A stretch of 10,424 nt of DNA from the UHGV virus genome UHGV-0117022, one strand, 5' to 3'. The position numbers were made by a program, and so were the translations under genes. The notes beneath the pieces are model-generated. The model did no database searches. It worked only from the letters and a program-made list of their open reading frames with translations, and was not told the DNA's origin. Origin of the DNA: a virus. Below are positions 1 to 10,424 of the stretch, piece after piece (the stretch's first letter is position 1; each line of letters opens with the position of its first letter).

Positions 1-74
1 TCCGTAACGCCTCTGCCACGCGCGTAACGTGACAGGGATTAAGGGTAAACTAACTGATTTTACAAGTTTTTATT

Positions 75-1361
75 TTACCCCACTTTCTTATGGGGCATAC
101 ATGGGACACTTTCAGATAGTCTTTTGTTAAGGAGTTCTATCTGTTCGTGATTGTTGTCTTTCATCCATGCTCCGTAAACATTGAATACCATTTGTGCGTT
201 TGTGTGGCCCATCTGGCTTGCGATAAAACTAGGATTAGCTCCAGCGGCAAGTGACCAGCATGCATAAGTATGCCTGGATTGGTACGATTTTCTGTGTCTC
301 AGACCTGCGCGTTTTAAGATACTTGTCCATGACTCCCTGATGGAGTCAACCTTATAGTGCGGTCCGGAAAACTGCCGCTGTTTTATTACCTGAGGACTAA
401 AAACAAAAGTGCATTTATGCACAGTACTTCTCCCATATTCCCTCTGCTTTACCTCTACAGAATGTTGCTTTCCAAGCATGGTCATTTCCGCCTGACTTTT
501 AAGAGCATCAATAGCTGGTTGAACCAGATGAATTGTCCTTCCGGTGCCAGCATCGGTTTTTGGTGGAGTGAATTCGCCAAGTTTTGTATAATTCCTACGG
601 ATGGTTATAGTCCTTGCTTTAAGATCTATATCTTCCCATGCCAGCGATACCAGCTCCCCGTGACGAATACCCGTGTATACAGCGAGAATCCACAGGTTTT
701 TTGTTTGTTGATGACGGCAAGCCTCAATAAAACGAATAAATTCGTCACGGGTGAGAGGATCTGGTTTTACCTTGGACTTTTTTAAGGGTGCCAGACCGTT
801 AAATGGGTTTCCTGAGGTATAACCATTATCTGTTGCAAATTGAAACATTCCAGCTATGGTTGTCATATAGTAGTTTACTGTGACCACTGAGCGCCCTTTT
901 ATGGAAGAAATCTTTCCATTAGAAAGCTTATGGTAACCGGTCAACAAATCTCTCCTTGCGAAAAGTAAATCCTCTTTTGTTATGGATGAAACCAGTTTTT
1001 TCTCACCCAACATAGGCAACATGTTTTTAATTACTGACTGGTAACGATTAAGTGCATTCGCACAAATCTCAATTTTCTTAAGGTCCAACCATTTTTCCGA
1101 AAGTGCCTTAACGGTTATCTCTCTTTTTCCCAGACCAAAGTGTTTCAGGTTAGGGGAATTAGGGAACTGTGTGGCGTAGTCGAAACACCCCATTCTGATT
1201 GCAAAACAAACGGAAGTGCGAAGTTCACCTGCGATCTTCCGGTTTTTGGCGGTGTCAGGAACACCGAGGTTTTCTCTGACACGTTTGCCATTATAGTGAA
1301 ACCATATACGGAGTGATCCTCCATGGTTTTCAACGCCTGTCGGGTATGATACGTTACTCAT
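75..1361 (-). CDS. int: Tyrosine-type site-specific integrase (lambda Int family), 428 aa
   Basis: ATG at 1361..1359 preceded by GGGAGG RBS. C-terminal catalytic signature visible in the translation: TGIRHGEL (box I Arg), HRKSYQSRHTYA (His-x-x-Arg) and NVYGAW (catalytic Tyr). N-terminal region resembles an arm-binding domain. Confidence 0.92.
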   Translation of the reverse strand: MSNVSYPTGVENHGGSLRIWFHYNGKRVRENLGVPDTAKNRKIAGELRTSVCFAIRMGCFDYATQFPNSPNLKHFGLGKREITVKALSEKWLDLKKIEICANALNRYQSVIKNMLPMLGEKKLVSSITKEDLLFARRDLLTGYHKLSNGKISSIKGRSVVTVNYYMTTIAGMFQFATDNGYTSGNPFNGLAPLKKSKVKPDPLTRDEFIRFIEACRHQQTKNLWILAVYTGIRHGELVSLAWEDIDLKARTITIRRNYTKLGEFTPPKTDAGTGRTIHLVQPAIDALKSQAEMTMLGKQHSVEVKQREYGRSTVHKCTFVFSPQVIKQRQFSGPHYKVDSIRESWTSILKRAGLRHRKSYQSRHTYACWSLAAGANPSFIASQMGHTNAQMVFNVYGAWMKDNNHEQIELLNKRLSESVPCMPHKKVG

Positions 1362-1394
1362 TAAACCTCCCAGACGTCCAGGAGCATTAACAGG

Positions 1395-1649
1395 TTAACC
1401 GGAACTTGCATTTTTGGCACCTGGTTGTTTCTGGTTTTCGATCCATCGCATAATTTCTTCGATGTTGTACAGGCATTCACTGTAATGCCCAGGATCACCT
1501 TCTACAGCGTAATGGCGGTATTCTTTTCCCTGCATCCATGACTTTCTCCTGGCCCGCTCGATGGTGCCGGGCTTTAGCCCTGTTGATGCAATAAGGACTC
1601 TCTCCGTACACCATTTGCTGGGGGTTATCTGATAGATGATTGTCTGCAT
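1395..1649 (-). CDS. xis: Excisionase-like small DNA-binding protein, 84 aa
   Basis: Small basic ORF immediately upstream of and co-oriented with int; ATG at 1649..1647 with GAGG RBS. Call rests mainly on position and size; sequence similarity to a named Xis family was not verified. Confidence 0.55.
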   Translation of the reverse strand: MQTIIYQITPSKWCTERVLIASTGLKPGTIERARRKSWMQGKEYRHYAVEGDPGHYSECLYNIEEIMRWIENQKQPGAKNASSG

Positions 1650-1667
1650 GCCAACCTCATAAAACTT

Positions 1668-1802
1668 TCATCCACGGCAGTGGCACCACATTTCAAACAT
1701 TCGCTTCACAACTTCACGACAGTAGAAACCGTCAACATCTCGCGTCAGATCATAGCGATTGCCGTAACGCTGGTGGACCCATCGTTCAAATGCTTTATTC
1801 AT
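1668..1802 (-). CDS. Hypothetical small protein, 44 aa (MNKAFERWVHQRYGNRYDLTRDVDGFYCREVVKRMFEMWCHCRG)
   Basis: Not in the supplied ORF track (below its size cut-off); hand-translated. ATG at 1802..1800 preceded by AAAAGGAAG RBS, stop at 1670..1668. It fills the gap between the upstream ORF stop (1808..1806) and the xis RBS. Confidence 0.4.
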   Translation of the reverse strand: MNKAFERWVHQRYGNRYDLTRDVDGFYCREVVKRMFEMWCHCRG

Positions 1803-1805
1803 TCT

Positions 1806-2048
1806 TTACTTCCTTTTCATGGCTCGTAATTTTTTCAGATGAGCTTCCTGCTCTGTTTCTGCCAGAATTTTGCGGTACTCCTGGTGGTCAATATGTTCGA
1901 ACAGGCTGTTGAACTCAGTGATGCGTACCCGCCCGGAGCGCCCGTCCATCCTCCGAAAGAATACCGAGTGAACAGTACTGCGAGTAATTTTTACCGGGTA
2001 GCCAGCACTATCGGTGTATATCTGCCCGCGTTGAATCAAAGCGAACAT
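1806..2048 (-). CDS. Hypothetical protein, 80 aa from the first ATG (track ORF 1806..2084 begins at a TTG)
   Basis: Open frame in the leftward operon. The codon at 2084..2082 is TTG; the first ATG is at 2048..2046. No recognisable motif. Confidence 0.4.
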   Translation of the reverse strand: MFALIQRGQIYTDSAGYPVKITRSTVHSVFFRRMDGRSGRVRITEFNSLFEHIDHQEYRKILAETEQEAHLKKLRAMKRK

Positions 2049-2132
2049 GTGGTTATCCCCATCGACAAATCGAGAACACAACAAACGCTGCTGCGAATAC
2101 CACCCCCAGAGTTACGATTGCATCAGGCCAGC

Positions 2133-2882
2133 TCATTGATTCACCTCCTGCCTGTCGTCCGGCATTCGCTCACTACAGCTTATCCAACCATCCGGAGTTA
2201 CCGGAACTTGTGGAATGGCTGTCTGCTCTCGAACGTCATTAGGCGCTATAGGTTCTGCTGCCAACTGACTGGCATATTTGTTAATGGTAACGATAAGCTC
2301 TTGCTCAGCCTCATCCAGACAATCACCGATACCTCGCCTGTCACCGTCAAAATCATCGAAATCGGCACGAATCCTGGCAACCTTCAGGATTGCGGACAAC
2401 ACCTCACTAGGAATTGCCGGATAGTTGGTTGACGTTTCCGCGATTTCCCGAAAATTATTGGTTGACGAATTCTTGTTTTCCCGAAAGTTTCCGGACTGAA
2501 GCATGGCGGCGCGGCAGGAGTTCCAGGCAAATAGTGCGGCTTCTTCCACTGAAGGCGGAGAGTATCGCTCGATAAACGCCTGTGCATTTGACAGCCTCCA
2601 CTCATGAGGCAATACCGGCGCTGGCGGGGCGATGCGTCCAAGCAACTTATTTACCTCTTTCGCCATCGCGTCATATTTATCTAAATAGCGATTAGCTTCT
2701 AAGCAGACTCGGTGCATCTGATCTGAGTTAACTCGTTTAACGGGATCTGCTTCCAGCGATGCCAGTGCAATCCGTGCCAGTTCTTCCGCTTCTTCTGCTG
2801 GCAGTACAACGTTGCTACCCGGTCCGTATGTTTCGCGCCACTGCTTGATTGTCAGCAGTCGCCCTTTGGTAATAGTGATCAT
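2133..2882 (-). CDS. Hypothetical protein, 249 aa
   Basis: Long ORF whose start overlaps the stop of the upstream nuclease-like gene in an ATGA arrangement (2882..2879). The C-terminal WISCSERMPDD stretch is reminiscent of the start of phage DUF551-type domains, but this is unverified. Confidence 0.55.
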   Translation of the reverse strand: MITITKGRLLTIKQWRETYGPGSNVVLPAEEAEELARIALASLEADPVKRVNSDQMHRVCLEANRYLDKYDAMAKEVNKLLGRIAPPAPVLPHEWRLSNAQAFIERYSPPSVEEAALFAWNSCRAAMLQSGNFRENKNSSTNNFREIAETSTNYPAIPSEVLSAILKVARIRADFDDFDGDRRGIGDCLDEAEQELIVTINKYASQLAAEPIAPNDVREQTAIPQVPVTPDGWISCSERMPDDRQEVNQ

Positions 2883-3394
2883 GCCGCGTTTCCTTCTTTC
2901 TTATTAACAATCACACCGTCATATATTTCATTAAGGTGCCCTCTCAACTCCATGCGCCTTAATGCAGATAACATGTAATCGCATTCAACCTGCTTATTCC
3001 CGGTAAATGGCTTATCGTCAGGATTACCCCAACAGCAATTACCCCTGGGCCATCCATGTACTTTCCGTACTCTTCCGTTAACAACGTGAAGTAATCCCCA
3101 GCCGGGAGGTAAATCCTCAACTGAAATAATTTCCGGCTCACTAATAAAGAATCGCCAGTCGCCCATGCCAAGTGAGGGATTTTTACGGAAACGCTTTTTT
3201 CTATCTGCCAACAAGTCAGCACGAGAACACTTCGCCTCTATCAGGCATGATGCTGAATTTCTGAATCCCATAGCATCTGGCTGTTCTCCGGTACTGGTTA
3301 CAGCAACAAAGCGGTCATGAAAGCAAACCTTGAACCCGTTGCGCTTAAGGAACTTGTACGCAATCTGACAGAGTTCGTGGTGTGTTAACGCCAT
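2879..3394 (-). CDS. Putative PD-(D/E)xK-fold nuclease-like protein, 171 aa from the ATG at 3394 (track gives a TTG-extended 178 aa ORF to 3415)
   Basis: ATG at 3394..3392 is preceded by a near-perfect AAGGAG RBS. The translation contains QPD...(13 aa)...LIEAK, consistent with the PD-(D/E)xK nuclease motif (VRR-NUC/MmcB-like proteins are examples of that fold). Family assignment is not verified. Confidence 0.5.
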   Translation of the reverse strand: MALTHHELCQIAYKFLKRNGFKVCFHDRFVAVTSTGEQPDAMGFRNSASCLIEAKCSRADLLADRKKRFRKNPSLGMGDWRFFISEPEIISVEDLPPGWGLLHVVNGRVRKVHGWPRGNCCWGNPDDKPFTGNKQVECDYMLSALRRMELRGHLNEIYDGVIVNKKEGNAA

Positions 3395-3395
3395 A

Positions 3396-3710
3396 TCACT
3401 CTCCTTTGATGCCAATGTTTACAGCCTGGCAAGCCTCTTTGAGCACCCAGTCAACAGCGTCTTTCCATACTCCGGTTTCGACTGGCGGATTTTCACGCTT
3501 AACCTGTTCATAGAAGCGCACTGCTTTAATCAATCCTTCTGGTCCCTGCAAGTTAGCTCGCTGTTCTTCTTTGGTTTCCAGCTCATCCAGCAGCGCCAGC
3601 ACAACCTGAGGTGTGACTTTCATACGAAATGCCAGCAATTTTTGTGGTGTGGCTGCTATTTTTATTGCTTCTGCCGCCTCACGCAGTGCCTGATAGTCAA
3701 TCTTGTTCAC
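3396..3710 (-). CDS. Ead/Ea22-like family protein, 104 aa
   Basis: GTG start at 3710..3708 with AAGGAGG RBS, overlapping the upstream stop as GTGA. The N-terminal IDYQALREAAEA...ATP followed by LLDELE matches my recollection of the conserved Ead/Ea22-like N-terminus found in lambdoid prophage accessory regions. Confidence 0.6.
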   Translation of the reverse strand: MNKIDYQALREAAEAIKIAATPQKLLAFRMKVTPQVVLALLDELETKEEQRANLQGPEGLIKAVRFYEQVKRENPPVETGVWKDAVDWVLKEACQAVNIGIKGE

Positions 3711-4408
3711 TGGTTGCCTCCTTTGCGAAGCTCTGCGGCAAAGTCAACTAACCACTCGGTCATTTCAACCTTCCCTACCAGGTCTGAACCAGGAAACATA
3801 CAGCAATCACTCTGCGCCGCTTTGAAATCCTTATACTCATATTCCTGAGCCACCAGATTTTTTGCAGCGTCTATAGCAGCATCCACCCCCTGCGCCCGCA
3901 CTTCAGCCAGGCATTTGCGAAACTCGGAAACGTACTGTTCGACGCTCATTCCCCAGCTAAGTGGACATTCATTGAATGTTTCGCCTTCGTGCTCTTCATC
4001 AGGTAGCTCTTTGGTAAAGAACTCACGTTCAATGGCGTGGAGTGTGTCAGCAAAACGACGTAAGTTACTCAAACCTGTCGTAATGGAGAATTCAGGAGCA
4101 TCACATCCGACGCCCATCTGCTGATAAACGGCGGTTTTGAAGGCCTTAAGCCCCGCATTCTCCGCCGCCAGCGCCGAAAACTTCTCGTGTGCCAACTTAA
4201 CAGCCGCATCAGCCTGCTTAATTGACTCAATCGCTTTCTGCTGGTCTTCGGCCAGCGCATTAGCACGCACCAGTTGCACTTCCAGTTGCGTTGCCAAATC
4301 GCTGATCAGCTTTGCCACACTGCGCATATCAACGGCACCACATTCTGCTTTCAGTTCCGAAGCCATCTCATGCCCGGCGGCAACTAACCCTTTGATATTA
4401 CTTTCCAT
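3707..4408 (-). CDS. Hypothetical coiled-coil-rich protein, 233 aa
   Basis: ATG at 4408..4406 with GAGGA RBS. The N-terminal half is Ala/Glu/Lys/Gln-rich, suggesting coiled coil. Translationally coupled to the downstream Ea22-like gene. Confidence 0.55.
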   Translation of the reverse strand: MESNIKGLVAAGHEMASELKAECGAVDMRSVAKLISDLATQLEVQLVRANALAEDQQKAIESIKQADAAVKLAHEKFSALAAENAGLKAFKTAVYQQMGVGCDAPEFSITTGLSNLRRFADTLHAIEREFFTKELPDEEHEGETFNECPLSWGMSVEQYVSEFRKCLAEVRAQGVDAAIDAAKNLVAQEYEYKDFKAAQSDCCMFPGSDLVGKVEMTEWLVDFAAELRKGGNQ

Positions 4409-4469
4409 CTTTATCCTCGCTTATCCACATAACTTATTGATTACATTGATAACTAAAAAGATCGTCGAT

Positions 4470-4814
4470 TCAGAACTCTTCGATTTTCCAGCCACCACCT
4501 GCTTTCTTTGGCTTAACAGTTACCCCGATGATTCGGAACGGATATTGATCTGCGGCGACTTTGGTTTTCACCCTGGCGTCGTCGGTCCAGAAACCTTTCA
4601 CTTCGTGCAGTTCCATCTCTCCGGTGGCGAGCATCACAGCGAAATCTGGCGTATAGAACGTGTTATCAGCTAACCGCAGCTTGATACCCTCGAATCGATA
4701 CCAGGCGATTTCCCCTGCACGTTTACGCAGCTCAAGGTGCTGGCAATACGCAGATTCTGTTTTGTTCATCTGGCCTGTTTTGAGTCGACCAAGAGCCTGT
4801 ATCTGTTTTCTCAT
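4470..4814 (-). CDS. DUF1064-family phage protein (possible PD-(D/E)xK-like fold), 114 aa
   Basis: Motifs YCQHLELRKRAGEI ... YTPDF ... ELHEVKG match the conserved pattern I recall for DUF1064 proteins, which are common next to phage replication genes. ATG at 4814..4812. Confidence 0.6.
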   Translation of the reverse strand: MRKQIQALGRLKTGQMNKTESAYCQHLELRKRAGEIAWYRFEGIKLRLADNTFYTPDFAVMLATGEMELHEVKGFWTDDARVKTKVAADQYPFRIIGVTVKPKKAGGGWKIEEF

Positions 4815-4831
4815 GATTTACCCTTGAGCTA

Positions 4832-4903
4832 ATTAAAAACCACATAAGACACGAAATCAATAGATTTTAGAATATTTTATTACCCGCCAGGTAATCATTG
4901 AAA
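4832..4903 (-). promoter_or_regulatory. Putative repressor-controlled internal promoter region: operator ATTACC-CGCCA-GGTAAT at 4879..4895 flanked by sigma70-like hexamers
   Basis: Perfect copy of the immunity-region operator palindrome. On the minus strand it lies in an 18-bp spacer between -35 TTTCAA (plus 4903..4898) and -10 TAAAAT (4879..4874). A second, stronger candidate lies just downstream: -35 TTGATT (4860..4855), 17-bp spacer, -10 TTTAAT (4837..4832), about 20 bp before the DUF1064 start. Confidence 0.45.
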
Positions 4904-4904
4904 C

Positions 4905-4926
4905 GTAAAAAAATGCGCTATCGCGC
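4905..4926 (-). terminator. Weak candidate intrinsic terminator after the P-like gene
   Basis: On the minus strand, GCGC-GATA-GCGC (4-bp GC stem) is followed by a run of seven T. The stem is short, so the call is tentative. Confidence 0.3.
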
Positions 4927-4931
4927 TGGTA

Positions 4932-5717
4932 TTACTTGATAAATCCTGCCGCCTTTCCCCGCCTGTATTCCTCCATCAGCCACTGCGCCGGTGTTATTCC
5001 CCCCAGGGTGGCGGCGTTAGGCATGCACCCGAAACTTCGCCCTGGTGGATGGTAAACGTCTCTCCCTGTGTCCGGAGGTGTACTCATGGGTTCTGGCTTT
5101 GCCTGTATGCTGATCACCGGATCGGGTATCTGCTGTCCGGAAGCCACCTTTTTCGCCCAATCATCGAGCAGCCTGCGCGCGTGTTTCTCAACCTCAATCT
5201 CGCTAAGCTGGCGCTGATACATTGCACGGCGGGTATCACATACGACCCAGTACATAACCGGATGTCGCCACGGGAATCTTTCGGGACCACCAGGATATAA
5301 ACTTTTTTCCTTGCTGTACCGGTGAAACTCCGCCATCACATCGTCAATGGTGACGCCAAGAACCATCTTGCTGTCTTTACACCACTTGATAAATTGCCCT
5401 GGCGACGGCCAGAACGGAGATTCACTGGCGCGGGCGTGGCGCATACCAGCAGAAACCTGTTCACGGGTTCGGATCCCCCCTTCGGCAAACGCAGCAATCC
5501 ACTGCTGTTTTGCAGCAACTTCCTGCTCTTGCGTCTTCAGGTTGGTTACCACTGCCGCCGGAAACAGTTGTTTCAGCTGTTTGAAAAGGGCATCAACAAG
5601 CCTCTCTGCTGACATGTTCACCACGTTGTCATTGTTGGTGTACTGATGCTCATAACCTGACATGCGAGAAAGGGCTTCTCCGTCACGGTTTTGTATCGCG
5701 GTAAAAACGTTGTTCAC
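4932..5717 (-). CDS. P: Lambda P-like replication protein (replicative helicase loader), about 261 aa
   Basis: Clear similarity to recalled lambda P: window MRHARASESPFWPSPGQFIKWCKD versus lambda MRVARRQNRPFLPSPGQFVAWCRE. Likely start is GTG at 5717..5715 (GGAGGA RBS 6 nt upstream, GTGA overlap with the O-like stop) rather than the track ATG at 5732. Confidence 0.78.
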   Translation of the reverse strand: MNNVFTAIQNRDGEALSRMSGYEHQYTNNDNVVNMSAERLVDALFKQLKQLFPAAVVTNLKTQEQEVAAKQQWIAAFAEGGIRTREQVSAGMRHARASESPFWPSPGQFIKWCKDSKMVLGVTIDDVMAEFHRYSKEKSLYPGGPERFPWRHPVMYWVVCDTRRAMYQRQLSEIEVEKHARRLLDDWAKKVASGQQIPDPVISIQAKPEPMSTPPDTGRDVYHPPGRSFGCMPNAATLGGITPAQWLMEEYRRGKAAGFIK

Positions 5718-6529
5718 AAGAAATCCTCCCATGCTTCAGGGCTGTTCCAGTGCGGAACGTTGTTATCAGGTAATGTTGATTGCTTCTGTCTGCTAATCTG
5801 CAGCCTCCTTGCCAGCTTCTGCTCCCACTGTGCCTGATGGTATGCCTTACCCTCAGCCATCCAGTAAATTCTGAACTCTGCAAGTTCCTGTGCCGTTGGC
5901 AGACTGTCCAGGTAGATTCCCTGCAATGAGCTTTTCCGAAGAAAGTCATCTGATGGCTGCCATTGTTCATGCATGACAAATTTACCTAATTGCCCTGGCC
6001 CACCAGGAGGAACAAAGTTATTCATCACGGCGTTGTTTGCGACGGGGTCATGAGGCACAGAATCCCCGGTTTTTGTCCTGCTCTCCCTCTCTTGGTTAAA
6101 TGACTGGTTATATGACTGGTTCTGGATCCCGTTTTTGGGATCATTCAACATCCCGTTTTTGGGATCATTCAACATCCCGTTTTTGGGTATATTCCCGTTT
6201 TCGGTAACATTACCGTTTTCGGGTTCATTGCCCCCCTCCCGGTTGCCTTTAATGTTCCCGTTTTTGGTTATATTAAGAGAGAAAACCCGCACTCTTTTTG
6301 TCGCTCCCTTTCTCTCTCCGGTATCTGAAATAAGCCCCATTTTCATGAGCGATATAAGCCCGGCCTGCACGGTTTTTTTATTCAGGCAAGTGTCTTTAAC
6401 GAGGCGTTCTATGCTGGGGTAGCAGAGGTTATATTCATCGGCTCTGTCAGCCATCGAGAGCAGTATGAGCTTTAATGATGAGCTACCTGGATCTGTCTCC
6501 CAGGCCCAATCTGTTGCATGTCTGCTCAT
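5714..6529 (-). CDS. O: Replication initiator, functional analogue of lambda O: N-terminal HTH domain, Asn/Gly-rich repeat linker, C-terminal DnaT-like domain; 271 aa
   Basis: N-terminus LKLILLSMADRADEYNLCYPSIERLVKDTCLNKKTVQAGLISLMKMGLIS looks like a winged-HTH replication-initiator domain. C-terminus WQPSDDFL...ELAEFRIYWMAEGKAYHQAQWEQKLARRL resembles the DnaT C-terminal pattern. It sits directly upstream of and is coupled to the P-like gene, and carries iterons internally. Confidence 0.75.
   Translation of the reverse strand: MSRHATDWAWETDPGSSSLKLILLSMADRADEYNLCYPSIERLVKDTCLNKKTVQAGLISLMKMGLISDTGERKGATKRVRVFSLNITKNGNIKGNREGGNEPENGNVTENGNIPKNGMLNDPKNGMLNDPKNGIQNQSYNQSFNQERESRTKTGDSVPHDPVANNAVMNNFVPPGGPGQLGKFVMHEQWQPSDDFLRKSSLQGIYLDSLPTAQELAEFRIYWMAEGKAYHQAQWEQKLARRLQISRQKQSTLPDNNVPHWNSPEAWEDFL
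6126..6290. repeat. Iteron array (candidate replication origin) inside the O-like gene: six copies of (A/T)TCCCGTTTT(T)GGG
   Basis: Direct repeats read from the sequence at 6126..6141, 6150..6165, 6174..6189, 6192..6207, 6210..6225 and 6275..6290, with spacings of 24, 24, 18, 18 and 65 bp. Each unit has internal dyad symmetry (TCCC-N6-GGGA), as lambda ori iterons do. A further short direct repeat ATGACTGGTT x2 lies at 6101..6122. Confidence 0.6.
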
Positions 6530-6544
6530 GATTAATCTCCGCTA

Positions 6545-6745
6545 TCAGCTTGAGTGTTGTGGGGAGGAATTAATCATGATCTGCTTAATCTCTGCCCTGA
6601 TGCGACGGTTTGATTCCATGGTGCACTCAACACAGTGTCCGTTGTAAACCCAGCGTTCACTGTCATGTCCATGCTTACATGGTTTTCCGGTGTAGTAGCG
6701 TTTAAGTCCGCGCTTTGCGGCATCAATACGTGTAATGATTTCCAT
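6545..6745 (-). CDS. Small Cys/His zinc-ribbon-like protein, 66 aa from the ATG at 6745 (track ORF extends to 6808)
   Basis: Translation MEIITRIDAAKRGLKRYYTGKPCKHGHDSERWVYNGHCVEC contains a C-x-H ... H-C-x-x-C arrangement. It occupies the cII-like position between the Cro-like gene and the O-like gene. Start choice is uncertain (ATG at 6781 or 6745, both with weak RBS). Confidence 0.45.
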   Translation of the reverse strand: MEIITRIDAAKRGLKRYYTGKPCKHGHDSERWVYNGHCVECTMESNRRIRAEIKQIMINSSPQHSS

Positions 6746-6825
6746 GGTAAGCCCTGTTATTAGTATTGGGATTACGGTCATTTTGTGCTGACACAAAAAA
6801 AAGATCAACCAGATTTGGTTATTTA

Positions 6826-6840
6826 TTACCTTTGAGGTAC
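6826..6840. promoter_or_regulatory. Operator-like site TTACC-TTTGA-GGTAC (9 of 10 half-site matches)
   Basis: Same palindrome as the immunity-region operators, placed just downstream (in the leftward sense) of the terminator hairpin and upstream of the Zn-ribbon and replication genes. A nearby small palindrome AACCA-GATT-TGGTT lies at 6808..6821. Confidence 0.4.
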
Positions 6841-6846
6841 GAATAG

Positions 6847-6874
6847 ATATGAAAAGACCGCCGGGTGGCGGTCT
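6847..6874 (-). terminator. Intrinsic terminator candidate directly downstream of the Cro-like gene
   Basis: Perfect 8-bp stem AGACCGCC / GGCGGTCT (6855..6862 and 6867..6874) with a 4-nt loop. On the minus strand it is followed by TTTTCAT; there is no T-run on the plus strand. Confidence 0.5.
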
Positions 6875-6895
6875 ACAGAGGGTTGTAGCTGGATA

Positions 6896-7126
6896 TCATG
6901 AGTAGAAGAAGTATGCCAGTTCTGCTTTTGAGCGCAGCCATTGTCTTGTTTTACAGGCTTTAAAAAGCCCATTCATCAATACTTTACCTGGCATTTTGCG
7001 CTTACCTGTTAAGTGAGTCTGGATATAGTGACTCGTCGTTCCGGCTTCCTGTGCGAAGGCTTCACGCTCATCCGGAGTAAGTGCAAGCCAGTGCTTTTTG
7101 AAATCGAAATGTCCGTTATCGCTCAT
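6896..7126 (-). CDS. Cro/CII-like small HTH DNA-binding regulator, 76 aa
   Basis: Small ORF transcribed divergently from the repressor gene, starting 154 bp from it across the operator cluster. EREAFAQEAGTTSHYIQTHLTGKRK looks like an HTH followed by a basic stretch. The functional label is from position. Confidence 0.55.
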   Translation of the reverse strand: MSDNGHFDFKKHWLALTPDEREAFAQEAGTTSHYIQTHLTGKRKMPGKVLMNGLFKACKTRQWLRSKAELAYFFYS

Positions 7127-7162
7127 AGCTATTGCCTGATATTTATTTCAGATAATAAATAT

Positions 7163-7225
7163 TCACCCATAAGGTAACAAAAATCAAGGATAGTTACCTA
7201 TGAGGTGCATTTACCTGTTGGGTAA
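7163..7225. promoter_or_regulatory. Operator cluster (OR-like) between the divergent Cro-like and repressor genes: three TTACC-N5-GGTAA-type sites
   Basis: Sites at 7163..7177 (TCACC-CATAA-GGTAA), 7194..7208 (TTACC-TATGA-GGTGC) and 7211..7225 (TTACC-TGTTG-GGTAA, perfect). Promoter hexamers for both divergent genes must lie in 7127..7280, but I could not place them unambiguously. Confidence 0.6.
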
Positions 7226-7280
7226 TATTGCTTTAAATTGAATCATCTACTGATTCATATATGAGGCGATTTTCCAGAAA

Positions 7281-7865
7281 ATGAAAAGTATCCAGGACGT
7301 CCGCAGGCAAAATCTCAACGACTTGATCGACCGTGAATTCAATGGTGTTCAGACGCGGATGGCAGAAAAACTTGGAACTCAGGCAAATCTGGTAAACCGC
7401 TGGGCTCTTGGCAAGAAGGTTATCGGCGACCAGGTTGCGCGAAAAATTGAAGCTGCCGCCAATAAACCCCGTAACTGGCTTGATATCGATCGCTCGCTTT
7501 CTCAGGAAGGTTTTCAGCCTGTCGGCCCAAGCGACATTGGTCAGCTGGCGGCTCACAACCTGGAACGCTGGATGAGCGAAAGCCGCGACCTTTCAACGCA
7601 GGGAAAACTTCACCGCGCATCCGGCGTCGCCCAGGTGACAATCAGTCGCCTGTTAAACAATGAGGTCAGCGTTTCCATTTCCACCCTGGAGAATGTTGCA
7701 TCCGCATTCGGGCGTCACGGCTATGAATTACTGATTCACCCGCACGACCCTGCGACCATCAACTATGACCGCTCGCGCTACGCATTGTTACCCGAAACCG
7801 AGAAAGCAAAGATCGAAAGTTACATTGAATTTGTCATCAACCAGAACGAAAAAAACAAACAATAA
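7281..7865 (+). CDS. Prophage repressor (CI-like role) with two HTH (XRE-type) regions and no recognisable S24/LexA-type peptidase domain, 194 aa
   Basis: N-terminal VQTRMAEKLGTQANLVNRWALGKKVIGDQVARKIE and a second HTH-like segment GVAQVTISRLLNNEVSVSISTLENVASAFG. The gene is monocistronic, bracketed by operator clusters and followed by a strong terminator. I saw no Ala-Gly/Ser-Lys cleavage-domain signature. Confidence 0.7.
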   Translation: MKSIQDVRRQNLNDLIDREFNGVQTRMAEKLGTQANLVNRWALGKKVIGDQVARKIEAAANKPRNWLDIDRSLSQEGFQPVGPSDIGQLAAHNLERWMSESRDLSTQGKLHRASGVAQVTISRLLNNEVSVSISTLENVASAFGRHGYELLIHPHDPATINYDRSRYALLPETEKAKIESYIEFVINQNEKNKQ

Positions 7866-7885
7866 AATCATACTTTTCAGTAAGT

Positions 7886-7912
7886 AAGCCGCCTTCTGGC
7901 GGCTTTTTTATT
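7886..7912 (+). terminator. Rho-independent terminator of the repressor gene
   Basis: Stem AAGCCGCC / GGCGGCTT (8 bp) with loop TTCT, followed by TTTTTTATT, 21 bp after the repressor stop codon. Confidence 0.75.
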
Positions 7913-7922
7913 GCCTATACTA

Positions 7923-7999
7923 TTACCTGATGGGTAATTTTTTTAACTCATATCTATTGACATCAAACCAAATACGCATAATTATTACCTCAACGGTAA
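7923..7999 (+). promoter_or_regulatory. Rightward early promoter/operator region (PL-like role): two perfect operators flanking a consensus -35
   Basis: Operators at 7923..7937 (TTACC-TGATG-GGTAA) and 7985..7999 (TTACC-TCAAC-GGTAA). Consensus -35 TTGACA at 7957..7962; an AT-rich -10-like stretch (CATAAT/TAATTA, 7977..7984) abuts the second operator, though the exact -10 and spacing are ambiguous. The first rightward gene starts at 8019. Confidence 0.6.
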
Positions 8000-8018
8000 C
8001 AGACCGAGGTAACAAGTT

Positions 8019-8171
8019 ATGCAGTGGAAAATCATCAACGGTTGGTACTGCGTTACTGCATGCGGATTCATGAGCTGGAAGTTCCGCACCTTACAGGAAG
8101 GCATTAAGTGGGCTTTCGTCAGCAAAGAAGCTCGCGATGTGGCCAACGATAACGAGATATGGGAGGGCTGA
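8019..8171 (+). CDS. Hypothetical small Trp-rich protein, 50 aa (MQWKIINGWYCVTACGFMSWKFRTLQEGIKWAFVSKEARDVANDNEIWEG)
   Basis: Not in the ORF track (too short); hand-translated. ATG at 8019 with GAGGT RBS 8 nt upstream. Its stop TGA at 8169..8171 sits 2 nt before the next start and within that gene's GGGAGGG RBS. First gene after the rightward promoter. Confidence 0.45.
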   Translation: MQWKIINGWYCVTACGFMSWKFRTLQEGIKWAFVSKEARDVANDNEIWEG

Positions 8172-8173
8172 TA

Positions 8174-8473
8174 ATGAACGTTAATCAGCAGAAAAATCTT
8201 CAAAAAATCATGCTGGCATTCGACAAGGACTACCGCCTGTCAGAACAGCTATATGACCGACAAGTTGAACTGATTGAGAGCATCCGACTTCATCAACTGT
8301 CCTCAACTTTCGACGTTGTAACAGGCAAAGGCGTTCGTCAGGAAGTGCTGGAGGCTGCTAAAGACAGCCCTGAGTTCGAAGAACTGATGGATGCCTACCG
8401 GCGCGAGGCAATGGCAATTATAGCGCGCTGGGATCTGGCGGATCAGCTTGATGGACAGAGGGACGCGGCATGA
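8174..8473 (+). CDS. Hypothetical protein, 99 aa (track ORF begins at an upstream alternative start, 8159)
   Basis: ATG at 8174 with GGGAGGG RBS; the stop overlaps the exonuclease start as ATGA (8470..8473). No motif recognised. Confidence 0.5.
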   Translation: MNVNQQKNLQKIMLAFDKDYRLSEQLYDRQVELIESIRLHQLSSTFDVVTGKGVRQEVLEAAKDSPEFEELMDAYRREAMAIIARWDLADQLDGQRDAA

Positions 8474-9291
8474 AACCGGGAATTTATTTCGACATCAGCA
8501 ACGAAGACTACCACGCCGGTGACGGCGTGAGTAAGTCGCAACTGGACATGGTTGCCAAGAATCCGGCGCTTCTTAAATGGGTTCAGGCAGCACCAGAAGA
8601 CGAAGAGAAAAAGTCTGCACTGGATATGGGAACCGCATTGCACTGTCTGCTTCTGGAGCCTGGAGAATTCGACAAACGCTTCATTGTTTCACCGAAGTTC
8701 GATCGTCGGACGAAACAAGGTAAAGCTGACGAAGAAGCATTTCTTCGTGATGTAGCGGATATGGGGATTACGGTACTTGATGCCGAGCAGTGGCGGAAAC
8801 TGGAGCTGATGCGTGATAGCGCAATGGCTCACCCGGCGGCACGCTGGATGCTGGAAGCACCTGGTTACTGCGAAGCATCAATGTACTGGAACGATGAAGA
8901 GACGGGTGAGTTGTGCCGAATTCGTCCAGACAAATGGCTGAACGAGCACAACGTGATCGTCGACGTGAAAAAGGTTGCAGATATGGACCGTTTTGCACGT
9001 CACATCGAGGAATTCCGCTACCACGTGCAGGACGCAATGTACCGCGAAGGCGCAATGAGGGTTACTGGTCAGCCGCATGGTTTTTTCTTTCTTGCCGTGA
9101 GCGAAAGCATTGATTGTGGTCGGTATCCGGTACGCGTGTTCGGGCTGGATGCGCCGGATGTCGATGCCGGGCACGCTCTGTTCCGCCGGGATCTGAATAC
9201 CTATCACGAATGCCGCATCAGCGATGAATGGGGCGGCGTGGAAATTATTAAACGCCCTGAGTGGGCACGCAAACAGGATATGTACGTATGA
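8470..9291 (+). CDS. RecE-like (exonuclease VIII-type) PD-(D/E)xK recombination exonuclease, 273 aa
   Basis: N-terminal GIYFDISNEDYHAGDGVSKSQL matches the start I recall for short prophage exonuclease VIII / RecE C-terminal nuclease-domain proteins. RPD...IVDVK fits a PD-(D/E)xK core. It is coupled to the downstream annealing-protein gene. Confidence 0.7.
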   Translation: MKPGIYFDISNEDYHAGDGVSKSQLDMVAKNPALLKWVQAAPEDEEKKSALDMGTALHCLLLEPGEFDKRFIVSPKFDRRTKQGKADEEAFLRDVADMGITVLDAEQWRKLELMRDSAMAHPAARWMLEAPGYCEASMYWNDEETGELCRIRPDKWLNEHNVIVDVKKVADMDRFARHIEEFRYHVQDAMYREGAMRVTGQPHGFFFLAVSESIDCGRYPVRVFGLDAPDVDAGHALFRRDLNTYHECRISDEWGGVEIIKRPEWARKQDMYV

Positions 9292-10205
9292 GCAACGAAA
9301 TTGCAATCACCAATGATGTGTTGGCTATTCGGGGAATCGATGAAGTTACATGGAGCGCTCTGAAAAACAGTATTTACCCTGGGGCAAAAGATGAATCGGT
9401 AATGATGGCAGTCGATTACTGCCGGGCGCGTCAACTCGATCCTCTTCTTAAGCCGGTACACCTGGTACCAATGAGTGTTAAAGACTCGAAGAGTGGAAAG
9501 AATGAATGGCGCGACGTGGTCATGCCTGGCATTGGACTTTATCGCATTCAGGCCTACCGTTCCGGCGATTACGCAGGCGCTAATGAACCTGAGTTCGGTC
9601 CAGATGTAACACAAACGCTTTCAGGCGTGGAGGTTACCTTCCCTCAGTGGTGTAAGTACACCGTCAGCAAGCGAATGGCAAGCGGGGAAATCGTAGAGTT
9701 TAGCGCCAAAGAATACTGGATTGAGAACTATGCAACTGGGGGGCGTGACACATCGGCACCAAATGCCATGTGGAAAAAGCGCCCTTATGCGCAGTTGGCA
9801 AAATGCGCAGAGGCACAGGCATTACGTAAAGCATGGCCGGAGATTGGTCAACAAGCCACAGCTGAGGAAATGGAAGGTAAATATATCGACTCACCTGACA
9901 TTATTGAACGTGACGTAACTCCAAGAAGTCAGGCAAAGCACGGCACAGCATCCAGCATGAACAGTCTGATCAACGCTAAACCAGTGAAAAAGCATGATGA
10001 GCAAACGCGTAAAGCGGATAGCCGTGATCCAGAAGAAATGCTGATGGCCTTTACCAGCGCAGCGATGAATTACAGCACTGTCTCCGAACTGGATAAGGCT
10101 TACAAATACATTGCACAAAAACTTTCAGATGATGACGAACTGCTGGCAAAAGCCACCGACGTTTACAGCGTTCGTCGGGAAGAATTAAACGAAACATCTA
10201 TGTAA
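9288..10205 (+). CDS. Single-strand annealing protein of the Bet/RecT (Red-beta) superfamily, about 305 aa
   Basis: ATG at 9288 overlaps the exonuclease stop as ATGA (the track start at 9261 is a GTG). Segments VDYCRARQLDPLLKPVHLVP, GIGLYRIQAYRSGDYAG and MWKKRPYAQLAKCAEAQALRKAWPE align by eye with lambda Bet/RecT conserved blocks. Confidence 0.75.
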   Translation: MSNEIAITNDVLAIRGIDEVTWSALKNSIYPGAKDESVMMAVDYCRARQLDPLLKPVHLVPMSVKDSKSGKNEWRDVVMPGIGLYRIQAYRSGDYAGANEPEFGPDVTQTLSGVEVTFPQWCKYTVSKRMASGEIVEFSAKEYWIENYATGGRDTSAPNAMWKKRPYAQLAKCAEAQALRKAWPEIGQQATAEEMEGKYIDSPDIIERDVTPRSQAKHGTASSMNSLINAKPVKKHDEQTRKADSRDPEEMLMAFTSAAMNYSTVSELDKAYKYIAQKLSDDDELLAKATDVYSVRREELNETSM

Positions 10206-10254
10206 CCACCACCGCGGCGCCACACGCGCCGCACTGCAACCAAGAGAGGTATTT

Positions 10255-10424
10255 ATGAAAGGTGCATTAGATAAGAAGAAACTCCTGGCGGTGGTGCCAC
10301 TGTCATGGAGCACTATCGACCGTATGGAGCGCGCAGGTGAATTTCCTAAACGCTGGTATATCACTGACAAACGCTGCGCATGGAACCGTGACGAAGTTGA
10401 GCGTTGGCTTGATGAACGTCAGGC
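10255..10424 (+). CDS. AlpA/excisionase-like HTH protein, partial (3' end beyond window)
   Basis: ATG at 10255 with AGAGAGG RBS. Translation MKGALDKKKLLAVVPLSWSTIDRMERAGEFPKRWYITDKRCAWNRDEVERWLDERQ shows the AlpA-family pattern: short N-terminal HTH followed by W...E.E.WL. The frame is open to the window end. Confidence 0.55.
   Translation, partial: MKGALDKKKLLAVVPLSWSTIDRMERAGEFPKRWYITDKRCAWNRDEVERWLDERQ

Follow-up and report, generated by a model that had tools for sequence, protein, structure and literature searches.

The unusual early-gene order of UHGV-0117022 is probably a join of two well-known Escherichia coli prophage arms inside a shared repeat

The stretch of viral DNA analysed here (UHGV virus genome UHGV-0117022; 10,424 nucleotides, hereafter the window) raises a question of gene order: why do its integrase and excisionase genes (int and xis) lie downstream of a Cro-like gene and of O- and P-like replication genes, on the same strand, with RecE-like and Bet-like recombination genes following the repressor on the opposite strand? 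The order itself, as described by a first-pass annotation of the sequence, is confirmed by the map of open reading frames (ORFs) and by Pfam scans: int, xis, a DUF4222 gene, ea genes, a DUF1064 gene, P, O, a small ORF and a cro-like gene form a single packed block on the minus strand, and the repressor, two small ORFs, a RecE-like gene and recT occupy the plus strand. That annotation also took recombination genes on the repressor side to be non-canonical, yet this is their canonical place both in lambda (as in the map of phage YYZ-2008) and in phage phiV10; the one unusual feature is the position of int and xis downstream of cro-O-P on the same strand. On balance, we favour the explanation that the order is a join of two well-known Escherichia coli prophage arms inside a repeat at positions 2161–3418, most likely an assembly chimera. 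The combination was seen once, in a contig of 4.4x coverage, across a repeat that cannot be phased. A distinct phage architecture is not supported; both components belong to known families.

By similarity, positions 1–3418 are the attL-int-xis-DUF4222-ea arm of a lambdoid prophage in mlrA/yehV. The first 2,151 positions (1–2151) are 100% identical to the mlrA-adjoining prophage of E. coli VR50 and of two other genomes, positions 1–3418 are colinear and gap-free with five mlrA prophage loci (L031, L032, L034, L035 and L036), and positions 1–3417 match the lambdoid and Shiga toxin phages PhiR5_1, VT1-Sakai and YYZ-2008 at 95–97% (megablast, phage records). At high identity, the stretch 1–2160 is confined to lambdoid arms. 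In the mlrA loci further ea genes follow on the int strand and lead to a cI-type repressor with an S24 peptidase domain, and cro and the replication genes are divergent from it; the full order in YYZ-2008 is int-xis...exo-bet-gam-N-cI, then, divergently, cro-O-P. The window shares with this type the arm-binding and catalytic domains of the integrase, the DUF1233 excisionase and a 21-bp attachment core abutting mlrA, but to the right of 3418 its int strand carries DUF1064-P-O-cro instead of recombination genes, N and cI.

Positions 2161–10424 are, on the same kind of evidence and at 97–99% identity, recognizable as the standard early region of the phiV10/epsilon15-like podoviruses (Uetakevirus). 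Positions 2155–10424 match the Uetakevirus phages phiV10, PAS61, phiv142-3, TL-2011b and ZX5 at 97–98% (megablast, phage records); 4251–10424 is 98.3% identical to, and colinear with, the guaA prophage of E. coli CRKP-1, and 3286–6253 is 99.97% identical to an independent contig. The map of phiV10 runs from terminase through lysis to its integrase on the plus strand (int'), then leftward through DUF1382, methylase, PerC, AlpA, RecET, p38, p39 and the repressor p40, and rightward through p41, p42, a DnaT-type initiator, P, DUF1064, eae and ea22 to p55 and back to terminase, an order repeated in the PAS61 record and in the guaA prophages of E. coli CRKP-1 and OZ039041 (L007). The window has the same repressor and divergent cro-O(DnaT)-P-DUF1064-ea order, with RecE and RecT on the repressor side; its repressor is 98–100% identical across 47 phiV10-like loci of IMG/VR. 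It departs from the group in two respects: its integrase is an Arm-DNA-bind_2 lambdoid enzyme by mlrA, not a P4-type enzyme at guaA, and its ea genes lead to DUF4222, xis, int and mlrA, not to a p55-like gene, terminase and structural genes, the normal continuation seen in L076, L025 and phiV10.

The two arms meet in a 1.26-kb stretch of accessory genes (2161–3418) common to both prophage types at 99.8–100% identity. In lambdoid prophages it occupies the distal end of the leftward operon (PL) and is transcribed towards xis and int; in phiV10-like prophages it occupies the distal end of the rightward operon (PR) and is transcribed away from cro-O-P. Since the repeat is distal and outward in both, any switch inside it gives cro-O-P, ea genes, xis and int on one strand, and such a switch of context would account fully for the odd gene order. 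Against the lambdoid locus L031 the window has zero mismatches over 2099–3412, a first difference at 3413 and no similarity beyond 3418; against an independent phiV10-like contig (L018) it is identical over 3286–4828, base 3413 included, so bases specific to the right arm begin at 3413. Within IMG/VR, the phiV10-like contig L076 holds 2161–3418 at 99.84% identity and then continues into the remainder of the DUF551 gene, followed by a p55-like gene and terminase. Two sites in the repeat are informative, the allele being lambdoid at 2519 and of right-arm type at 3413, which locates any switch between them; this phasing cannot separate an assembly artefact from a crossover, and the unique flanks of the repeat are at least 675 bp apart. 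The core of the repeat is a 678-bp cassette (2740–3417) encoding a protein of 171 amino acids (aa). Its copies in lambdoid leftward arms, in phiV10-like rightward arms and in a lambdoid nin-type region are at least 98.7% identical, and a plasmid copy is about 98% identical. As an exact match the 171-aa protein is listed in 9,926 collection blocks, and its gene behaves like a very mobile accessory gene.

Is the join found anywhere else? The data compared comprised 5,426 complete E. coli genomes, 50,697 phage records and the 47 phiV10-like IMG/VR loci, with domains assigned from Pfam scans and gene order from the ORF map; a complete genome was scored as carrying the junction if at least 80% of window positions 1–4900, or of the whole window, was covered at one place. 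The junction is present in none of the 5,426 complete genomes, 414 of which have the phiV10-like core and 464 this int arm; no phage record among the 50,697 spans both sides, and none of the 47 IMG/VR loci has this xis or int downstream. An assembly chimera is consistent with all of this: the flanks are attested separately, the join falls inside a long repeat and closed genomes lack the junction. Two independent MEGAHIT contigs of the same right arm, L017 (k119) and L018 (k127), end at 3294 and 3286, and such ends, k bases to the left of 3413, are characteristic of a de Bruijn graph that branches at the edge of the repeat. A repeat of 1.26 kb exceeds the usual short-read inserts. Chimeric metagenome contigs are known to arise from k-mers that related genomes share when their abundance is low (review PMC7299287).

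The window is 100% identical over its whole extent to one contig in the ENA assembly ERZ1755949 (NODE_1686_length_12174_cov_4.378909), whose name follows the SPAdes contig-naming format and states a mean coverage of 4.4. It was found through an exact-protein look-up of the eae-like gene, a protein carried by four contigs and adjoining DUF1064 and P in every one of them. To the left NODE_1686 extends past window position 1 into mlrA, yohO, yehW and yehX; to the right it ends at window position 10424, within an AlpA-like gene. In its native setting the lambdoid arm is the far end of a leftward, repressor-side operon, and the phiV10-like arm reads int'...RecT-RecE-repressor and, divergently, cro-O-P-DUF1064-ea genes-terminase. 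The repeat was probably present in both prophage types of that gut sample. We hypothesize that the assembler, producing a metaSPAdes-style contig at 4.4x, would have switched path inside the repeat, and the switched path would place xis and int downstream of cro-O-P, co-oriented with them.

An assembly error had been allowed for by the first-pass annotation, and an artefact is indeed what we favour, at 2161–3418 and not at the two sites that it suspected. Joins at 4815–4931 or 7866–8018 were rejected, both sites lying inside stretches colinear with phiV10 (97.7% over 4251–9313) and with independent contigs. The gap 7866–8018 contains a hairpin (7886–7905) where phiV10 annotates a terminator; in the gap 4815–4931 the scan gave no hairpin, though phiV10 annotates a terminator after its P gene. 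That the order might be standard for a known phage group was likewise rejected: the phiV10-type integrase sits beyond RecET, on the repressor side, and no record has the order of the window. Between the two readings that the annotation had offered, a distinct mosaic or a rearranged or satellite-like derivative, the evidence accordingly favours the part that speaks of rearrangement (or of an artefact); a standing architecture is unsupported, with no genome or phage group showing this order, and a satellite finds no support either.

The same junction might instead be a real product of homologous recombination, the crossover falling in 2161–3418, between a lambdoid mlrA prophage and a phiV10-like phage or prophage, an explanation that we consider possible although somewhat unlikely. 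Two routes would lead to it: in the first, of Campbell type, a circular phiV10-like genome crosses once into the lambdoid prophage to give a nested prophage whose right-hand junction is the window; in the second, an mlrA prophage recombines with a phiV10-like prophage at guaA and inverts the interval of about 416–430 kb. The single Campbell-type crossover is the simpler of the two, and by either route the result would be a rearranged composite, its lambdoid int and xis read from the phiV10-like early-right promoter only by accident. A repeat of 1.26 kb at 99.8–100% identity suffices for RecA or RecET recombination, and the orientation suits both routes (E. coli K-12 carries mlrA on its plus strand and, about 416 kb away, guaA on its minus strand; in the orientation of the window both are minus). 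Both parents occur about 430 kb apart on opposite strands, each in its standard site, in the 2.3-Mb contig ERZ28761307 contig_5448 (L126 at 19.9–32.1 kb, L025 at 449.8–466.3 kb), which shows that the arrangement needed as a starting point for the junction does exist in nature.

Against a real recombinant stands the junction's absence from all 5,426 complete genomes, though hundreds carry each parent, together with a coverage of only 4.4x. The reciprocal product, moreover, keeps two copies of the repeat, so that a short-read assembler would be no better at phasing it and the contig adds little support. The interval between mlrA and guaA also lies inside what we take, from K-12 coordinates and the presumed positions of oriC and dif, to be a single replichore. 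Prophage-bounded inversions occur even in single-colony cultures of E. coli O157, but the rearrangements mapped there were limited to repeats of at least 5 kb and biased to the terminus, as against 1.26 kb here (bioRxiv 10.1101/2020.12.02.407981). In favour of recombination, phage recombinases are described as permitting exchange with resident prophages (PMC3945230).

Several points weigh against the artefact that we favour. The phiV10-like arm has its own RecE and RecT, and a circular phiV10-like genome that crossed over once into a resident lambdoid prophage would, with the orientation checked by hand, yield exactly this junction. Assemblers mostly halt at unresolved repeats, and a contig that passes through the repeat rather than halting gives some weight to a real single path. 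The look-up lists NODE_1686 in two, possibly independent, samples. The artefact is argued from context and not from reads, the context being the observed decomposition into two arms, the repeat between them, the places where other assemblies break and the lack of the junction in the genomes and records compared. Finally, prophages of E. coli do recombine homologously, and commonly (bioRxiv 10.1101/2020.12.02.407981; PMC3945230). Were the junction true, it would be a modest case of a known process, prophage–prophage recombination that makes a hybrid or nested prophage, and an integration module would possibly have moved between unrelated phage types.

The features of the window, from left to right, are as follows.

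17–37, plus strand: attL core CACGCGCGTAACGTGACAGGG, 21 bp, identical to the 'direct repeat due to prophage insertion' annotated in YYZ-2008.
75–1361, minus strand: tyrosine integrase, 428 aa (Pfam Arm-DNA-bind_2 and Phage_integrase).
1395–1649, minus strand: excisionase (Pfam DUF1233, E = 2e-29; xisR in RefSeq).
1806–2084, minus strand: DUF4222 gene (Pfam match).
2133–2882, minus strand: truncated DUF551 ORF, 249 aa (Pfam: the first 16 residues of the DUF551 domain only).
2879–3394 as 171 aa, or 2879–3415 as 178 aa, minus strand: cassette ORF (no Pfam match).
3396–3710, minus strand: Ead/Ea22-like gene, 104 aa (Pfam Ead_Ea22; phiV10-like L007 at 99.8%).
3707–4408, minus strand: eae-like gene, 233 aa (relatives named 'eae-like domain protein' in RefSeq).
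4470–4814, minus strand: DUF1064 gene, homologue of phiV10 p45 (Pfam and phiV10 map).
4932–5732, minus strand: lambda-P-like replication protein (Pfam Phage_lambda_P, E = 6e-57).
5714–6529, minus strand: O-like/DnaT-domain replication initiator (Pfam HTH_36 and DnaT).
6545–6808, minus strand: small ORF (ORF map).
6855–6874, after the cro-position gene: terminator-like hairpin (hairpin scan; phiV10 annotates a terminator there).
6896–7126, minus strand: cro-position gene, 76 aa (no Pfam match; role assigned from position and from homology to phiV10 p41).
7281–7865, plus strand: double helix-turn-helix (HTH) repressor of the phiV10 p40 / ZX5 ORF21 type (Pfam HTH_3 and a second, weaker HTH).
7886–7905, after the repressor: terminator-like hairpin (hairpin scan, at the phiV10-annotated terminator).
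8470–9291, plus strand: RecE-like PD-(D/E)XK exonuclease (Pfam DUF3799, E = 2e-21).
9288–10205, plus strand: RecT-family annealing protein (Pfam RecT, which is the Pfam family of lambda Bet).
10255–10422, after RecT: start of an AlpA-like gene (gene calls on the source contig), truncated where the contig stops.

The left arm is itself composite, pairing two haplotypes that were not seen together: 1–2151 is of VR50 type (100%) and 2099–3412 of L031 type (100%), with an overlap of 53 bp, and the int arm of L031 itself differs from the window at 74 sites. Either natural mosaicism or a further path switch might account for this pairing. The VR50-type prophages have about 183 bp extra between window positions 2151 and 2158, and the deletion in the DUF551 region (the 249-aa ORF at 2133–2882) is common to the window and the L031-type mlrA prophages. 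A DUF4222 gene is present in all mlrA lambdoid arms examined; a phiV10-like locus of IMG/VR (L107, 12091–12437) also has one on its rightward arm, at 85% nucleotide identity to window 1805–2151, which means that even this 'lambdoid-arm' gene circulates between both arm types.

A viable new hybrid phage would also have the gene order of the window: a phiV10-like podovirus would have acquired, through recombination in shared ea genes, a lambdoid int-xis-attP module where its early-right operon ends; it would integrate in mlrA rather than guaA and express int and xis with the replication genes. We regard such a phage as improbable. On paper such an architecture could function. All ORFs of the window are open, the attL core at 17–37 is intact, late genes could sit past the right contig end, and ea-type genes, that of DUF4222 included, move between both arm types. 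The layout, however, is in no phage record, IMG/VR contig or complete genome searched, and its basis is a single low-coverage contig. Each Uetakevirus prophage examined sits at guaA with its own P4-type integrase, and the published attachment site of the group is the 3' end of guaA (PMC9782041); the Uetakevirus attP core ATTGAGTGGGAATGATT is absent from the window at up to 2 mismatches, and its native site would fall beyond the contig end. The window also has no late-activator-like genes (equivalents of p54 and p55), which normally follow the ea genes. If the hybrid were true, integration would be retargeted from guaA to mlrA, and int and xis would be tied to the lytic early-right transcript and not to the repressor-side one.

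Highly improbable, in our judgement, is a small satellite-like or defective element of about 10 kb, comparable to a phage-inducible chromosomal island (PICI) or P4, with its own int, regulation and replication module. The compact int-xis...replication...repressor layout superficially resembles one. Of the two attachment sites that the first-pass annotation had proposed to locate, the attL core was found at 17–37, but it is the single copy in the window, with none near the right end, as a complete small element would need. For replication the window has the O and P genes of a full-size phage in place of a primase-replicase; all parts are 97–100% identical to full-length prophages, and capsid-redirection or packaging genes are absent from the window.

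Some features of the right arm deserve mention in their own right. The ZX5 ORF21 protein, of the p40 type, has been shown to be a repressor (PMC9782041). The repressor at 7281–7865 has no S24 peptidase domain, and induction by RecA-stimulated self-cleavage of this double-HTH protein is therefore unlikely; the ZX5 study points to an antirepressor (PMC9782041). Inside the O/DnaT gene, three adjoining tandem arrays at 6093–6229 (12 bp x 2.4; 24 bp x 2.6, with a 100% match; 18 bp x 3.1) encode an N/G-rich linker of the initiator and, by analogy with the lambda origin, which lies inside O, are probably origin iterons. The RecE-like and RecT genes (8470–10205) are separate ORFs with a 4-bp overlap, at a place where phiV10 has a single annotated RecE-RecT fusion (29722–31482), and the RecT core (9313–9957) lacks similarity to phiV10, its matches being in other guaA prophages. 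An identical 104-aa Ead/Ea22-like protein also occurs in large integrative elements (L006, L008–L015) with ParA, DnaB, topoisomerase III and SSB, so that this phage accessory gene is common to islands resembling integrative and conjugative elements (ICEs); its exact-protein look-up, which returned ICEs and one phiV10-like prophage, is uninformative for the junction.

Among known systems, the closest to the right arm are the Uetakevirus phages phiV10, vB_EcoP_PAS61, TL-2011b and vB_EcoP_ZX5 and the Salmonella phage epsilon15. Window positions 4251–10424 are colinear with them at 97.7–98.3%, with the same double-HTH repressor, divergent cro-position gene, O/DnaT, P, DUF1064, eae/ead, RecE-like and RecT genes, and with the terminator-like hairpin after the repressor at the place annotated in phiV10. 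Their ea genes lead to DUF551, p55 and terminase, whereas those of the window lead to lambdoid xis and int and to mlrA; their P4-type integrase lies beyond RecT, by guaA, and phiV10 differs further in its annotated RecE-RecT fusion. The left arm is that of the mlrA/yehV lambdoids (YYZ-2008 [Pankowvirus], VT1-Sakai, and the prophages of E. coli VR50 and SCU-105), which share its attachment core, Int, Xis, a 44-aa ORF, DUF4222 and the DUF551 and cassette genes. In these, more ea genes lead to exo-bet-gam-N-cI and the divergent cro-O-P, or to equivalents, whereas the window turns phiV10-like at 3413–3418.

Two further systems bear on how the arms came to be joined. The prophage rearrangements of E. 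coli O157:H7 (Fitzgerald et al., bioRxiv 10.1101/2020.12.02.407981) are comparable in that inverted homologous prophage segments could recombine into hybrid junctions; those, by contrast, were mapped at repeats 5 kb or longer with an identity of at least 98%, are terminus-biased and were verified by long reads or optical maps, whereas here a repeat of 1.26 kb holds a putative junction. Chimeric contigs of short-read assemblies (PMC7299287) differ from the present case in that chimerism is argued here from context instead of reads, and resemble it in their conditions: sequence shared by related genomes, low abundance and de Bruijn branches, with other assemblies breaking at the same branch. The comparison carries a caution: near-identical ea genes stand at the ends of both lambdoid leftward and phiV10-like rightward operons, and short-read metagenome contigs can therefore fuse the two arms and mimic a new phage layout.

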